A DNA stretch of 26,000 bases. It comes from a virus. The DNA lies in UHGV virus genome UHGV-0185509, one strand, 5' to 3'. The notes below the pieces were generated by a model. The model did not search any database. It saw only the letters and a list, made by a program, of their open reading frames with translations, and had not been told where the DNA came from. This document shows, piece after piece, positions 4,221 to 26,000 of this stretch (its first letter is position 1; each line of letters starts with the position of its first letter). Both the position numbers and the translations under genes were made by a program.

Positions 4221-4394
4221 TAGCGATAATTTTACTCATCATCCTTCACATCTGGCTCTGTAGACAGGGTGGTGATCACTTCTGGAGTGAATCCAGATTA
4301 AACATCTCATTGCTGATGCTTGAAGTTGAGCATCTGGCGCGCAGTAAGGGGCTGCGTTGAGATAAGAGCCAGTCATTACAAATACCAGGATTTA

Positions 4395-4420
4395 GCCTCG
4401 CATTTGCGGGGCTTTTTTAT
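4395..4420 (+). terminator. intrinsic terminator downstream of the lysis cassette
   Basis: Hairpin GCCTCGC-attt-GCGGGGC followed by TTTTTT at 4413-4418. Confidence 0.6.
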
Positions 4421-11101: not shown

Positions 11102-12396
11102 TGGCATTAAATGAAGGTCAACTGGTCACGTATGCTCTGGATGAAATCATCGAAACCGTCCAGAACCTGACGCCAATGGCGTCCAAAGTGACAAAATACA
11201 CCCCTCCGGCAGAATCCATGCAGCGTTCAAGCAACACCGTGTGGATGCCTGTTGAGCAGGAAGCGCCAACCCAGACTGGCTGGGATTTAACTGGCAACGC
11301 AACCGGGATTCTGGAACTCTCCGTGAAATGCAACATGGGCGATCCGGATAACGATTTTTTCGAGCTTCGTGCAGATGACCTGCGTGATGAGCGTTCTTAC
11401 CGTCGCCGCATCCAGGCATCCGCCAAAAAACTGGCGAATAACATTGAGTCAGCGATTGCCAAACAGGCAACTGAAATGGGCTCGCTTGTTGTTCACGATA
11501 CCCGCGCAATTGGTCCATCTACTGGCCTGTCTGGCTGGGATTTTGTGTCTGATGCAGAGCGCCTGATGTTCTCCCGTGAGCTAAACCGCGATATGGGCAT
11601 CAGTTACTTCCTGAACCCTGACGATTACCGCAAAGCAGGCCGCAACCTGGTAGATGGTGACATCTTTGGGCGCGTTCCTGAAGAAGCGTATCGCAACGGT
11701 ACTATTCAGCGTCAGATTGCTGGCTTTGATGAAATTCTTCGCTCACCGAAACTTCCGGCAGTTACCAAGTCAACCGCTACTGGTGTAACTGTGTCTGGTG
11801 CGCAGAAGTTTAAGCCGCAGGCATACACCCTTGATACCGATGGTAACAAAGAGAACGTTGACAACCGTGTTGCAACGGTGACCGTATCCTCCACCACCGG
11901 GTTTAAGCGCGGCGACAAAATCAGCTTCACTGGTGTGAAATTCCTGTCTCAGATGGCGAAGAACGTGCTAACTGATGACGCGACTTTCTCAATCACCCGT
12001 GTGATCGATGGTACTCACATCGAAATCACGCCGAAACCGATTGCACTGGATGACGCGTCACTGACAAAAGAAGAGAAGGCTTACGCTAACGTAAACACCT
12101 CTCTTGCTGATACCACTCCGGTAAACGTTCTGAACGTGGCAACAACCACCGCTAACGTGTTTTGGGCTGATGACTCAATCCGTCTGCTGTCTCAGCCGAT
12201 CCCGGTAACCCATGAACTGTTTGCTGGCATGAAAACGTCTTCCTTCAGCATTCCTGGTATTGGTGTTAACGGCATCTTCGCAACGCAGGGTGATATCAAC
12301 ACTCTGTCTGGTAAGTGCCGTATTGCTGTGTGGTATTCAGCATGTGCTGTACGACCAGAGGCAATTGGTGTTGGTCTGCCTAACCAGACTGCGTGA
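11101..12396 (+). CDS. gp5: major coat protein (P22 gp5-type)
   Basis: 430 aa plus initiator Met; aligns along its length with P22 coat as I recall it (MALNEGQ.VT...DEIIET...[21 protein letters not shown]...GVGLP.QTA). Confidence 0.95.
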
Positions 12397-12404
12397 TAAC
12401 CAGA

Positions 12405-12427
12405 GGGAGCTTCGGCTCCCTTTTTTA
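12405..12427 (+). terminator. strong intrinsic terminator immediately after the coat gene
   Basis: Perfect hairpin GGGAGC-ttcg-GCTCCC followed by TTTTTT (12421-12426), 9 nt after the coat stop. Confidence 0.75.
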
Positions 12428-20538: not shown

Positions 20539-22401
20539 ATGACAGACATTACAGCCAATGTGATCGTATCAATGCCTTCGCAACTCTTCACTATGGCGCG
20601 TTCTTTTAAAGCCGTAGCCAATGGAAAAATTTATATCGGTAAAATTGACACTGACCCGGTAAATCCTGAAAACCAGATTCCGGTTTATGTAGAGAACGAA
20701 GACGGCTCTCACGTTCCTGTTTCGCAACCAATAATCATTAACGCTGCCGGATATCCGGTATATAATGGACAGATTGCCAAGTTCGTAACTGTGCAAGGCC
20801 ATTCCATGGCTGTATATGATGCGTATGGTTCGCAGCAGTTCTATTTTCCGAATGTGCTGAAGTATGACCCTGACCAGTTTAGACAGGTTATAGAGGGGCC
20901 TGACGGGGCTTACGATGTTGGGTACACAACAGCATTTAATAATAATGAGATAACCGTTGGAGATGCGCTCGATAATAAAATTCCTAACATTATTGGTAAC
21001 GTTGATGTGCCACCAACTGGGTTTATTTTCCATCCATTCACAAGATATAGCGGAGACCATGACTTGCGATATATCAACGGTGGAAACCCCAAATCAATTA
21101 AAAGGCTGAAGAAGACGGGTAATGCCACCGTCACGCTCAACCCTATCACCACTGAGGGTTCCAGCCCTAGCAAGTTAACCGTCGATACAGTAGGGTACGT
21201 TAACCCGGCAAACGCCGACCCCGACGGCACTACATTTCCGGCAGGAATAAAAATTGATGGTGTCACATTTGAAGGGGACGATGCCGGCGGGCAAAGCGGT
21301 TTAACAATACTGCAAGGACACAATTTTCAGATTAAAGAATGCGGATTCTCTAAAACAAAGATTGCGATATGGTTACGTGACGTATGGATGTCGTCGGTAA
21401 GAGACTGTAGTTTGTTCGGACAGTACCTACAAGAGGGTGGAACCAGCATGACTATTGAGAATTGTTATGCGACAGTGCACGACAGCACGGTGACTCCTGG
21501 AGCATTCAGAATTTCAAATCTTCAATACTCATCCATGTCTAGCTGCGCTTCTGATGGCACCGTAAATACAGCGTATTACTTCAACGGTAATAACGGGCTT
21601 AAGGTAACGAGTTGCGGTTCGGAAGTACCAACAGCTCTAGACAAAAACTACGGGACAGCCGCGCATTTCGAAGAAAGTAACGAGATGATACTTGATAATT
21701 TCTACACATTACCTGCTTCGGGTAGCAATATTCTGTTCTCTATAAAAAACAACAACGATCTTGTATTCAATAATACTATGGTTTACGGGGATCCGGCAAA
21801 ATGGAGTCGGGATTTCTGGTTACTTGGTTCCGGGAATAAAGTAGTTGTTAATGGGGGGACTTTTGGGAATACAGGGCGTATCCCGTTGGTGGCAACTAAC
21901 GCTGCTGGTAACACGTTTATCTACAACAGTACTGATGGCAATAGCTACATCGCTAAAACGACTGGCGCGGCTATCACTGTAACCCTTGAACCTAAATTCC
22001 TTAGCAAAACTCTGGATCTTACATCCGATGTGGTCTTTGCAAATAGTGGCCCAGTTACTGGTGGAACCAAGGACATTAAGTTCACTAAGAGTGGTAACAT
22101 TGCTACGGTAGAATTTAATATCACCATCCCTGACATATCTGGCAAAGTAGGTCAACTTTTGATAAATGGCTTACCTTATGCTGCGGCACAGTCTGGTAGC
22201 GGTAGTGTATCTATAGCTTTAGGTCTTGCCACAGGGGTTGGTAATATCACTTGTGTAATACTAAGGGATGACAACCAAATTATGTTTTACAAGTCAACTA
22301 CAACTAGTGGTGTGTCTTCAGCTCTAGGTCCATCTGACTTAATTAATGGGAGTAGTTTAAGGGGGAGCATTACTTACTCCTGCGTGTCTGACTGGGATTA
22401 A
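20539..22401 (+). CDS. gp9: tailspike protein: P22 gp9-type N-terminal head-binding domain fused to a different receptor-binding (beta-helix) body
   Basis: 620 aa; first ~110 aa ([11 protein letters not shown]...[38 protein letters not shown]...[16 protein letters not shown]...NVLKYDPDQ) match the P22 tailspike N-terminus, while the remainder has no resemblance to the P22 body that I can see. Confidence 0.9.
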
Positions 22402-22437
22402 CCTTCTAAAGGTTAATTTTGAAAGTGCATTTGTATG

Positions 22438-22481
22438 CCCCCCCTCATGAAAATTATCTAATTCCCGAGAGGGGGGGGGGG
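22438..22481. repeat. C7...G11 inverted repeat (likely bidirectional terminator) between convergent tailspike and gtrC
   Basis: CCCCCCCTC at 22438-22446 pairs with GAGGGGGGG at 22469-22477, loop about 22 nt; the G run continues to 22481 (11 G), 1 nt from the gtrC stop. Confidence 0.6.
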
Positions 22482-22482
22482 C

Positions 22483-24006
22483 TTATTTGCAACTAATCTT
22501 TCTAAAATCAATGACAAAATACTTGTCATTCACAAATGTATTATACATTTGTCCTTTTGAAACCATTTTCATTTCGCATGGGTTAATCGTATAATTGGCA
22601 TTCTCTATGGGATTCTGTATACCAAACATTTTTATCATACCTTTTCCCCACCATCCATTATTATAGTAAAGAGGAACAACTGAAGAGAGGGAGGGAAATC
22701 TTCTTATAGCATTATCTCTTTGCGGAGATGAAGGTTGCACTCCAAAAAACATGATGGTTTTTGTGGCCTCTGGATCGTTACGTGATATTTCCTCTGCCAT
22801 GATATGCGATAAAAAATAATCAAATTTATTTTGAGCGTCCATAGCACTTCCAAATGCGTATGAGTAGACTAGAAGCGGTAATACGAAAGGTGTTGATAAT
22901 ATGATATGATGCTTAAAGTTTTTAATTAAAGAAAAATAAGATATGCCAACTAATAGCATAAATCCGCTAAACGAAGCCATGACTCTATCTGAGAATACTG
23001 GATATTTTAATAAACATAAATGTATTGCAGCAAATGCCATTATTATTAATGGAGATATCAATAACAAAATAATTATAATTAAATTTAAAAATGATCTTCT
23101 GTTATTGTTAAATATTCCAATGGCTGTCTTTATAATAAATATTGAAACTGTAGCCAAGGAAATTAATGAAAGTAATAGCATGCCATTAACATATAGCAAC
23201 ACCATTGATAAAAATGCCAATGCATTATTTATGAAAATATTAATTCCTTCACGATCAATACTTATTAATGTGGAGTGCTCAATGTTATATTCTCCGAATA
23301 CGAAGTGAGCTGAAATGTTGCTATATATAAAGTATCCAACAAGTAATTGCGCAGCTCTACATAAAATATCTATAATTAGGTCTAGTTGTTTTGTGTATTG
23401 CTTATTAGATGCGTTAATTATGAATTCTATTACTGCCAGACACACAAAAAATCCTATAACAGCCTGGTACAAGCAAAGGGATATAACAACGAAAGAAACT
23501 GAGAAAAACCATTTTAATAATTTTGAACTGTACGATAGGAACGGGAGCAGCATAAGTGACAACGCTGCTATCATTGGTACAACATCGAATTTATAAGATA
23601 AATTTTCAAGCAGAAAAGGGTTTGCAATAATTAGAAAGCATATAACGGCTGAAGCTATGCTATTAAAGTGGTTAAGGTTTGAACGAAAATATAAATATGC
23701 GCATATAATAAAAATTATTATCCCGATAAATAATGTAAGCGGAGAAATGTCAATTGTTGACTCTGCATTCAAGTTAACTAAAGACATTAATAGGTCCGCA
23801 AGAGGTCTTCCATTTGAACTCCATCCAAAATAACCATCCTGTGCTCTTCCAAGATCGTCTATGTAGTATCTATTGGCAATTATTATCGGGATGATATAAA
23901 TAAAACAAAGAGATGATAAATATATTAAAAATAATTTACCTTTTGAGTCCATATGATATTTAATAATTTTATGGCCAGTAATTAATTTGCTCATTGTATA
24001 ATCCAT
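22483..24006 (-). CDS. serotype-specific O-antigen glucosyltransferase (GtrC / Gtr-type family), polytopic membrane protein
   Basis: 507 aa, multiple hydrophobic segments, very AT-rich; sits immediately downstream of gtrA-gtrB in the same orientation, the canonical position of the type-specific gene. Confidence 0.8.
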   Translation of the reverse strand: MDYTMSKLITGHKIIKYHMDSKGKLFLIYLSSLCFIYIIPIIIANRYYIDDLGRAQDGYFGWSSNGRPLADLLMSLVNLNAESTIDISPLTLFIGIIIFIICAYLYFRSNLNHFNSIASAVICFLIIANPFLLENLSYKFDVVPMIAALSLMLLPFLSYSSKLLKWFFSVSFVVISLCLYQAVIGFFVCLAVIEFIINASNKQYTKQLDLIIDILCRAAQLLVGYFIYSNISAHFVFGEYNIEHSTLISIDREGINIFINNALAFLSMVLLYVNGMLLLSLISLATVSIFIIKTAIGIFNNNRRSFLNLIIIILLLISPLIIMAFAAIHLCLLKYPVFSDRVMASFSGFMLLVGISYFSLIKNFKHHIILSTPFVLPLLVYSYAFGSAMDAQNKFDYFLSHIMAEEISRNDPEATKTIMFFGVQPSSPQRDNAIRRFPSLSSVVPLYYNNGWWGKGMIKMFGIQNPIENANYTINPCEMKMVSKGQMYNTFVNDKYFVIDFRKISCK

Positions 24007-24023
24007 GTGATTCCGTAGTTTGT

Positions 24024-24935
24024 CTATTTTTTAATGATATATCTTGGTCTTGATTTAGACTCTATATATATTCTACCTATATACTCACCAAGAACCCCTA
24101 TCCCAATCAGTTGTACACCGCCTAAAAAGAGGATTGATACAAGTAAAGATGGGTATCCACGAACAGAATTACCAAAAATTAGAGTGTCAAAAATCATCCA
24201 TGAGCCATATATAAATGCTAGCCCAGCGACTAATAAACCAATATACGTCCACATGCGAAGAGGGAAGGTCGAGAAGCTCGTGATACCCTCAAGTGCTAGG
24301 TTCCACAATTTCCATCCATTGAATTTAGAGTCACCGGCAACACGTTCTGCCCTCGCGTATTCCACAACATCTGTGCGACCGCCAACCCAACTCAGCACAC
24401 CTTTCATAAAAAGGTTGCGCTCTGGCATAAGCTTAATGTTTTCGACAACTTCACGGCTCATTAACCGGAAATCGCCGACATTCTCCTCGATCTTTGGGTT
24501 GCTTATTTTGTTGTGCAATTTATAAAACCACTCTGCCGTTTTGCGTTTCAGTCGTCCGTCAGTTGAGCGATCAGTTCGCTTAGCCAGCACCATATCAGAG
24601 CCTGCCTGCCACTTTTCGATGAGGTGGGGAATAACCTCAATCGGATCTTGCAGGTCAACATCAATTGGAATTACAGCATCTCCGGTTGCATGGTCTAGCC
24701 CTGCAAACAATGCTGGTTCTTTACCAAAGTTTCGTGTAAATGACAGCGGAACAACCAGCGGGTCTGAAACAGCCAGAGCATTAATAATTGACTCCGTAGC
24801 GTCTTTGCTTCCGTCATTTATGAAAACAATTTCCACTTCATATGGCTTCAACTCTTCGAATTCACGTACCGTTTTATAAAAAATTGGTATCGCTTCTTCT
24901 TCATTGAAGACAGGAACTACAAGAGATATCTTCAT
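24024..24935 (-). CDS. gtrB: bactoprenol glucosyltransferase GtrB (GT2 family)
   Basis: 303 aa; N-terminus ([19 protein letters not shown]...INDGSKD) is a GT2 signature with DxD-like region ([10 protein letters not shown]) and two C-terminal TM helices, as in GtrB. Confidence 0.9.
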
Positions 24936-25294
24936 TTCGTATCCCTAAAGACAATGAACTTTGAATAGACGAAACCGCACACCAGACTGATGGCGGAGAA
25001 GGTGATAAGAGTGATAATTGGAGGAAATGAGCACTTATCAGCAGCCCATCCAACAGTAGCACTCAGTGTTCCCATGAACCCGACATATAACATGTAGCGC
25101 ATCGTTGTAGTCGATGCTTTGAATGTGAATCTTGCATTCGCGAAGAAGCTAAAACTCACAGCCACAACGAAACCTGCGAAGTTTGCAAGAGCTTGATTGG
25201 TATGCGCGCCATAGATACATACACCAAAAACCACCCAGTGTATAAGTGTGTTCAGCACACCAATCGAGGTGTACTTTGCAAATAGCTTTAACAT
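24932..25294 (-). CDS. gtrA: GtrA flippase-like small membrane protein
   Basis: 120 aa, four hydrophobic segments, start motif [20 protein letters not shown]; overlaps the gtrB start by 4 nt; first gene of the three-gene gtr operon. Confidence 0.85.
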
Positions 25295-26000
25295 TTATTT
25301 AATCAATGAGTTCTGAAAGGCATGAAGTCTATCATCCAAGTCTCAATCGATCGATGATTTGCTGTGGTTGTTGAGACAAAACTGAGAAACATAAGTCTTT
25401 GCAATGGCTTTCAAGGCTTTGTGCTATTCGATTGTGGTTGAGGCTGATCACTCCACCTTTTCATCAAGCCAGTCTACCCACCACTGCATCATGTCTCTGC
25501 ATTTATCGTAGTTGATGCATCACTATCACCCTGTAATGGCTTATTACTGGTTTGCAGACAGGTAGGCATGAACAGATACCTGCGCATGAAGATGGAACTA
25601 GTCCGGATGCGATATTTTTGGTGATCACGTACATCATCAACGAAGCGCGTTATGGTGAGTTTTATGACTGCCAAGTAATGTGAAAATTGCGATGCGTACC
25701 AAATTGTGTACCAAATTAAAATCATAAACCATGAAACCCTTACTCATGGCTGTTCTCAGGCTGGGTGCGTGTAATCGTGAAACAAAAAGGTAGATTGTTG
25801 CTTACCGTCATTCATCATTAGGTTAAATCCGTTATTTCTGCTGTATGCCAGAGTACCAAATATCACAACGCTAATCAGCTTTAGAGCGACAATTTGGCAG
25901 CGTGTGGAAACAGATAATGTCAGATTAAAATGAGATAAATGTCACATTTTCTTGCACTTTATTCCAGCCAGTTCATCAGGATTTCCGTAAAAAGAACAGC

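Follow-up and report, generated by a model that had tools for sequence, protein, structure and literature searches.

A length-polymorphic C/G hairpin between the convergent tailspike and gtrC genes of a P22-like prophage is a candidate insulating RNA element

The tailspike and gtrC genes of virus genome UHGV-0185509 are convergent, as established from open reading frames and their translations, and a hairpin built from a run of seven C and a run of eleven G lies in the 81 nt between their stop codons. In the following, the window is the whole stretch of 26,000 nt that was analysed. Judged from its sequence, its modelled folding and analogy with related loci, the hairpin is likely (with a probability of roughly 60%) to be an insulating RNA element at the junction between the late operon and gtrABC, which would serve as a terminator on the tailspike strand and as a pause site or 3'-end protector on the gtr strand. 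If this is correct, the hairpin would be a piece of routine genome punctuation, by which both gtr RNA antisense to the tailspike gene and late transcription into gtr are prevented.

The tailspike gene is the final gene of a rightward late operon, and its product begins with a P22-type head-binding domain (PF09008, from hits on identical proteins). Beyond gtrC, the O-antigen-modifying gtr operon continues with gtrB (24024-24935) and gtrA (24932-25294). The start of gtrC is ambiguous (23992-24006), as the longest ORF encodes 507 aa (MDYTMSKL...) and the RefSeq protein of 503 aa starts from the second ATG. A perfect 10-nt inverted repeat, ACAAATGTAT-T-ATACATTTGT, is also present in the 3' end of gtrC (22532-22552), approximately 50-70 nt before the stop codon. 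GC content is 47% in the window, approximately 44% in the tailspike module and 26-36% in gtrC; the fall starts at the hairpin, and the stretch from 22650 to 24150 has 26-35%. Such a low GC content is typical for a horizontally acquired serotype-conversion gene.

The head genes are approximately 98% identical to those of the P22-like E. coli phages CurroJimenez_Bas106, APC_JM3.2 and IME10, and the relatives carry the element as a prophage, with its gtr end beside dacD. CurroJimenez_Bas106 lacks a gtr operon, and its tailspike gene is not followed by a comparable hairpin; IME10 is too sparsely annotated to serve as a comparator. The C-terminal portion of the tailspike, of approximately 500 aa (20900-22401), has no close relative among 50,697 phage records. 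Its receptor-binding part is best matched, at 41-43% identity, by tail fibres of Escherichia phages vB_Eco_F22 and E20, and P22-like phages match only the N-terminal 120-166 aa of the tailspike (75-96% identity).

Table 1. Features of the tailspike-gtrC junction and the two reference terminators of the window
Feature	Position	Strand	Basis or remarks
Tailspike gene, 620 aa	20539..22401	+	ORF and translation; PF09008 on identical proteins
gtrC, GtrII-like serotype-specific glucosyltransferase, PF14264	22483..24006	-	ORF and Pfam
AU-rich 10-bp hairpin GAUUAACCUU-CUA-AAGGUUAAUU, then UUG	22396..22418	+	Folding and inverted-repeat scan
Whole C/G hairpin: G-C7-UC, 22-nt partly self-paired spacer, GA-G11-C	22437..22482	.	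Sequence and folding
C7 run, 5' arm on + strand	22438..22444	+	C7 in relatives except C8 in L006 and C6 in L033
Inner AU palindrome AAUU-AUCU-AAUU	22452..22463	.	Folding; unchanged in all relatives
G11 run, 3' arm on + strand	22471..22481	+	Polymorphic: G9, G10, G11, G13, G8TGG
U-rich tail UUAUUUG	22483..22489	+	Sequence; last codons of gtrC (TGC AAA TAA) on the opposite strand
Canonical intrinsic terminator AGCCTCGCATTTGCGGGGCT, then T5	4394-4413	+	Scan; internal reference
Canonical intrinsic terminator AGAGGGAGCTTCGGCTCCCTTT, then TTTAT	12402-12423	+	Just after a 431-aa ORF ending at 12396; internal reference

Along the + strand, the junction consists of GAT and the tailspike stop codon TAA (22399-22401), CCTTCTAAAGGTTAATTTTGAAAGTGCATTTGTATG, the C7 run, TCATGAAAATTATCTAATTCCCGAGA, the G11 run GGGGGGGGGGG, a single C, TTA (22483-22485) and TTTGCA. 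A reading of the sequence alone had proposed that these two homopolymers form a stem between convergent genes, and the runs, their positions and the convergent orientation of the flanking genes are as it described. Two details required correction. The G11 run was said to abut the gtrC stop codon; it is adjacent to it but does not touch it, as C22482 intervenes before TTA, the reverse complement of TAA. The distance between the runs was given as about 22 nt and is in fact 26 nt, the smaller figure being obtained only if the flanking TC/GA pairs are included, which yields a 9-bp stem (CCCCCCCTC/GAGGGGGGG). Within the spacer, the AU palindrome and the sequence CCC-GAGA-GGG (22464-22473) are alternative inner helices. 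A G-quadruplex formed by a single G11 run would have two tetrads at most.

Two further features of the intergenic region lie outside or across the C/G stem. The AU-rich hairpin overlaps the tailspike stop codon and is unchanged in all relatives; with a weak predicted energy of -7.6 kcal/mol, it may be an auxiliary first terminator, in tandem with the C/G hairpin. Additionally, a mini-ORF on the + strand (22435-22461; ATG CCC CCC CTC ATG AAA ATT ATC TAA, encoding MPPLMKII) crosses the C7 run and would be shifted out of frame in the C6 and C8 alleles described below. It is probably due to chance, because it has no convincing ribosome-binding site.

The C/G hairpin exceeds chance expectation. Only three homopolymers of 7 nt or more are present in the 26 kb, namely T7 at 2594 and the C7 and G11 runs themselves, and the pattern C7-N15-35-G9 occurs once in the window and 0 times in 100 dinucleotide-preserving shuffles. 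The hairpin region is the top-ranked short-range inverted repeat of the window (19-nt arms, 79% complementary), and the 126-nt intergenic segment folds better than its own shuffles on both strands (z = -3.1 and -3.9). No further G8 or C8 run was found in 33 retrieved loci, which included 13 kb of P22.

The element is rare in sequence collections. Megablast and blastn searches of the region against the 50,697 phage records gave no match and yielded no annotated phage comparator for the element itself. Among 5426 complete E. coli genomes, it is carried by three records from two strains; blastn with 11-nt words and the 121-nt region as query returned 3 records of 20,395, with a single place per genome. 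The exact 26-nt spacer pattern was absent from the GTDB species representatives and JGI metagenome contigs scanned; its single occurrence in IMG/VR is on a contig that has the window's allele. A locus search based on gtrC returned only that same IMG/VR viral contig. Many further copies were recovered from draft assemblies by look-up of exact protein sequences, and the element is present in approximately 20 independent assemblies from NCBI, ENA, JGI and Logan, two complete genomes among them.

In both complete E. coli genomes with the element, the prophage is degraded. Strain c1-17 (L001, 1969-4402) has an IS3 upstream of a 317-aa tailspike remnant, and EC23HZZ201 (L002, 3248-4000) has an IS1 insertion at the equivalent of window position ~22361; in each, gtrABC and both intergenic hairpins are intact beside dacD. 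An assembly chimera at the G run was rejected, because the junction is present in these two complete chromosomes and in many independent assemblies. A known RNA family was likewise rejected: Rfam at a permissive threshold returned no family, and the only scores, for IS605-orfB-II (23 bits against a gathering score of 88) and rli43, were at chance level. Literature searches covering P22, tailspike, gtrC and terminators, as well as homopolymer tracts in prophages, yielded no account of the element.

When each sample was counted once, six alleles of the tracts were distinguished. C7/G11/C is present in seven assemblies (the window, UViG 3300045988, L008, L013, L027, L028 and L029), C7/G10/AC in six (L005, L009, L010, L011, L014 and L031) and C7/G9/AC in four (c1-17, EC23HZZ201, SRR10254141 and ERR3393093); C7/G13/C (L030), C8/G13/C (L006) and C6/G8TGG (L033) were each found in a single assembly. 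The G9 and G10 alleles have A at position 22481. Outside the tracts, approximately 125 nt around the element are identical in all allele-typed assemblies, and the relatives are approximately 99% or more identical beyond the tracts. For instance, across 12 sequences the approximately 4.1 kb from 21290 to ~25400 contain about 7 SNP sites, compared with at least 4-5 events in the 45-nt hairpin. Similarly, L033, which is 1% diverged, has 48 differences in 4.5 kb; the two tracts account for three of these, and the rest of the intergenic region for none. The concentration of events in the tracts relative to the few SNPs around them identifies the tracts as a mutational hotspot.

Long G runs are error-prone on several sequencing platforms, and neighbouring alleles are one G apart, so that a tract, or a tract length, produced by sequencing or assembly has to be considered. 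Such an artefact is very unlikely. The alleles are found repeatedly in independent assemblies, complete genomes included, and they follow flanking SNPs: G at 22481 co-occurs with G at 21241, and 21157G and 24537C are further variants common to the G11 clade. Among sequences with an identical tailspike, seven of eight have exactly G11. Of the fetched contigs that end inside the retrieved stretch, none ends at the tract and three end in gtrC. Therefore, given this association with flanking SNPs and its presence in seven assemblies, G11-C is a real allele and not a random sequencing error, and on this sequence evidence G11 is probably the true length in the window. Short-read contigs (L028-L030 and cluster members P0127-P0134) do often stop in the AT-rich gtrC, 468-1498 nt from the tract, and these interrupted contigs yield partial proteins of 157-293 aa.

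The caution expressed in the sequence-only reading, that the tract is prone to slippage and its exact length doubtful, is thus borne out in one respect and not in the other: the tracts do vary in length between assemblies and hold all of the intergenic variation, but G11-C is identical in seven assemblies sharing lineage SNPs. Comparison of these sequences indicates that the tract is slippage-prone over evolutionary time and is not hypervariable in the manner of a contingency locus. It is a genuine polymorphic marker that separates lineages of a near-identical tailspike-gtrC module, and real differences in its length are to be anticipated in annotation and variant calling. In every one of the approximately 20 relatives, a stem of at least 8 bp is retained and G outnumbers C, although the tract lengths vary. 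Since both arms are homopolymeric and G is always in excess, slippage leaves the stem standing, and the tract becomes the single variable spot in a near-invariant module.

Folding of both strands supports formation of the C7/G11 stem. The predicted structure on either strand is a long imperfect hairpin with an outer 9-pair C/G stem, an inner AAUU/AAUU helix and a 4-nt loop; on the - strand, the inner helix extends to GGGAAUU/AAUUUUC. For the four commonest alleles, the core is predicted to have -22.7 kcal/mol on the + strand and -25.1 kcal/mol on the - strand, with a stronger core in C8/G13-C and, on the + strand, in C7/G13-C, and a weaker one in L033 (-19.4 kcal/mol). For the window allele, two registers on the + strand are predicted to be equally stable. 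In the inner register (-22.7 kcal/mol), C7UC pairs with GAG7 to give a 15-pair interrupted stem with a 4-nt loop, and the U tract follows after a gap of 4-5 nt. In the outer register (-22.6 kcal/mol), G22437:C22482 closes a stem of C7 and the last seven Gs, the CCC-GAGA-GGG mini-helix takes up the first Gs, and an 18-nt bulge results.

On the tailspike strand, these features resemble those of an intrinsic terminator. The stem comprises 8-9 G-C pairs and one G-U and is found 36 nt past the tailspike stop codon, and UUAUUUG follows directly after C22482, with 5 U in the first 8 nt. The U tract touches the stem in the outer register only. The predicted pairing probability of the bases before the U tract is approximately 0.7 in G11-C and 0.96-0.99 in the G13 alleles, compared with approximately 0.01-0.04 in G9-AC and G10-AC; a stem abutting the U tract is thus predicted for GnC alleles only. 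A simple consensus scan (loop of 3-8 nt) recovered only a 5-pair sub-hairpin at the site on the + strand. For reference, the two canonical terminators of the window (Table 1) have 6 and 5 U in 8 nt and much weaker stems, of -13.6 and -14.4 kcal/mol. Overall, the folding models suggest that the + strand hairpin is a plausible, though non-textbook, intrinsic terminator. Normal termination at this site in G9-AC or G10-AC prophages would weaken this model. In addition, late transcription in P22-like phages is antiterminated by gp23, and intrinsic terminators may therefore be partly ignored in lytic growth.

The sequence-only reading regarded the hairpin as a probable bidirectional terminator, and this is supported for one strand only. 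The tailspike strand is terminator-like by virtue of UUAUUUG. The gtr strand differs in three respects: its tail, AUACAAAU, contains 2 U among 8 nt; the + strand sequence upstream of the hairpin, GUGCAUUUGUAUG, has no A tract mirroring the U tract; and the 5' arm begins 2 nt past the gtrC stop codon. For tR2, the one terminator tested, placement a few bp past a stop codon almost abolished termination in vivo, as the ribosome covers it (PMC4824070). A consensus terminator scan of the - strand at the site found nothing. Because the gtr side has no U tract or mirrored A tract and the stop codon is 2 nt away, the hairpin does not qualify as a bidirectional terminator. A single hairpin that halts RNA polymerase in both directions without additional factors is therefore quite unlikely, even though the structure is predicted to be stable on both strands and a genuine bidirectional terminator occupies the corresponding site in P22.

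Other routes could nevertheless limit read-through from the gtr side. Untranslated antisense RNA past the hairpin would be a substrate for Rho. On the gtr strand, the C:G ratio of the downstream sequence amounts to only 0.9-1.9, and the sequence is suggestive at best of Rho loading on the C11 run of that strand. Stem-loops at convergent gene pairs have been found to position head-on polymerase collisions (bioRxiv 10.1101/2022.10.23.513370), and REP palindromes, which have no U tract, are reported to be partial, Rho-assisted terminators as well as mRNA stabilizers (bioRxiv 10.64898/2026.03.23.713779).

Taken together with analogy and folding, these considerations suggest how an insulating element might operate at this junction. 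Two convergent units, the late operon, whose last gene encodes the tailspike, and gtrABC, the operon for lysogenic conversion, would meet at the hairpin. On the tailspike strand, it would most likely be a Rho-independent terminator, with 8-9 G-C pairs ending right before UUAUUUG and with a stem in which C7 pairs with seven Gs and is closed by G22437:C22482. On the gtr strand, the hairpin is more likely to be both a pause or collision point and a barrier to 3' exonucleases, which would define and stabilize the 3' end of the gtr mRNA. Polymerases travelling in the gtr direction would be released through Rho acting on untranslated RNA antisense to the tailspike gene, or by head-on collisions. Termination, pausing and RNA stabilization are activities that we infer from sequence, modelled folding and analogy. 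In lysogens of BTP1, a P22-like prophage, the gtr operons rank among the prophage genes with the highest expression (PMC7067206), which implies a need to insulate the tailspike gene from antisense read-through.

Alternatively, the hairpin could be a neutral scar, left at the junction of a tailspike module of approximately 44% GC and a gtrC module of approximately 30% GC, retained for want of anything to remove it and with no role at RNA 3' ends. The GC content falls exactly at the hairpin, as expected for such a scar, and there is too little diversity overall for purifying selection to be demonstrated. Moreover, the tailspike C-terminus, the hairpin and gtrC always move together, so that selection on the hairpin alone cannot be shown. 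However, a strong hairpin is found at the same place in P22 and in unrelated gtrC loci, and the stem has survived at least 5-6 independent tract changes without G ever being fewer than C. Even a scar would leave the junction in need of a signal limiting antisense read-through. A neutral origin of this kind is thus unlikely, and an insulating element is the reading preferred here.

The variability of the hairpin raises the further question of whether its tracts regulate expression. In a contingency-type switch, slippage of the G run would reset the terminator geometry and thereby set heritable levels of read-through between tailspike and gtr. Several observations would fit: the tracts are the only intergenic variation and change far more often than their surroundings, including in L033; six alleles exist in approximately 20 assemblies; and the predicted pairing beside the U tract rises from approximately 0.02 in G9-AC and G10-AC to 0.7-0.96 in G11-C and G13-C. 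In contrast, the tract lies after both stop codons and outside the reading frames, and no promoter-like site spans it. The main predicted change in pairing comes from the A-to-G substitution at 22481 and not from slippage. Classical contingency loci differ in nearly every isolate, whereas the alleles here are stable within lineages, as in the seven of eight identical-tailspike sequences with G11. A contingency-type switch is, on these models and comparisons, very unlikely. The same low probability applies to a mutationally tunable insulator, in which slippage or point changes would bring the stem up against the U tract or shift it away. Phase variation of the frameshift type, in gtrC or in the tailspike gene, was rejected, because both stop codons come before the tract.

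Known gtr phase variation acts through Dam and OxyR at the promoter. GATC (Dam) sites are strongly under-represented in the window, with 59 observed compared with 109 +/- 9.5 expected from shuffles. Only two of them, at 25349 and 25446, lie within approximately 160 nt upstream of the gtrA start codon, and a Salmonella-type Dam/OxyR switch is therefore not evident. If the allelic differences in the hairpin were to alter read-through, this would be a new type of simple-sequence regulation, in which a simple-sequence dial works on a terminator, and not on a reading frame or a promoter, in a phage of mismatch-repair-proficient E. coli. The alleles G9-AC, G10-AC, G11-C, G13-C, C8/G13-C and C6/G8TGG form a natural series with which the effects of register and of stem-U-tract spacing can be tested.

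The hairpin can be compared with several known systems. With the poly-G/C contingency tracts of Neisseria, Haemophilus and Campylobacter, it shares a run whose length, G9-G13, differs between near-identical strains. It differs from them in being neither in a reading frame nor in a promoter spacer, in its stability within lineages and in its mismatch-repair-proficient E. coli host. The REP/BIME sequences of E. coli are likewise GC-rich imperfect palindromes without a U tract that are located in 3' UTRs, often between convergent genes; they are, however, dispersed repeats with a consensus, whereas the element is phage-borne and homopolymeric. Identity with REP/BIME was therefore rejected, as the element has one place per genome (3 records of 20,395) and no Rfam family. 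Collision-assisted bidirectional terminators (Wang et al., bioRxiv 2022.10.23.513370) also consist of a stem-loop between convergent genes, which fixes the point at which polymerases meet. Through such collisions, a hairpin that has no U tract might still limit gtr-side read-through.

The closest positional counterpart is the annotated terminator between gene 9 and gtrC of P22 (BK000583, 18214-18245; AAAAATGGGTGTAAACACCCATTTTT), which at the same position likewise separates the stop codons of a convergent tailspike and gtrC pair and, by analogy, presumably has the same role. It is a textbook bidirectional terminator, with A5, a 5-bp GGGUG/CACCC stem, a 4-nt loop and U5. The hairpin of the window, an unusual homopolymer version, has no sequence similarity to it and differs in its homopolymer arms, its 22-nt structured spacer, its one-sided U tail and its length polymorphism. 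Similarly, loci encoding a GtrC of approximately 40-44% identity (E. coli L018, Salmonella L020/L021 and metagenomic L022/L024) each have their own perfect 10-12-bp hairpin downstream, which in L018 and L022 separates gtrC from a convergent tailspike or tail-fibre gene. These hairpins mostly have no strong U tract on the gtr side. By this analogy, the role of a hairpin at the 3' end of gtrC appears to be conserved while its sequence is not.
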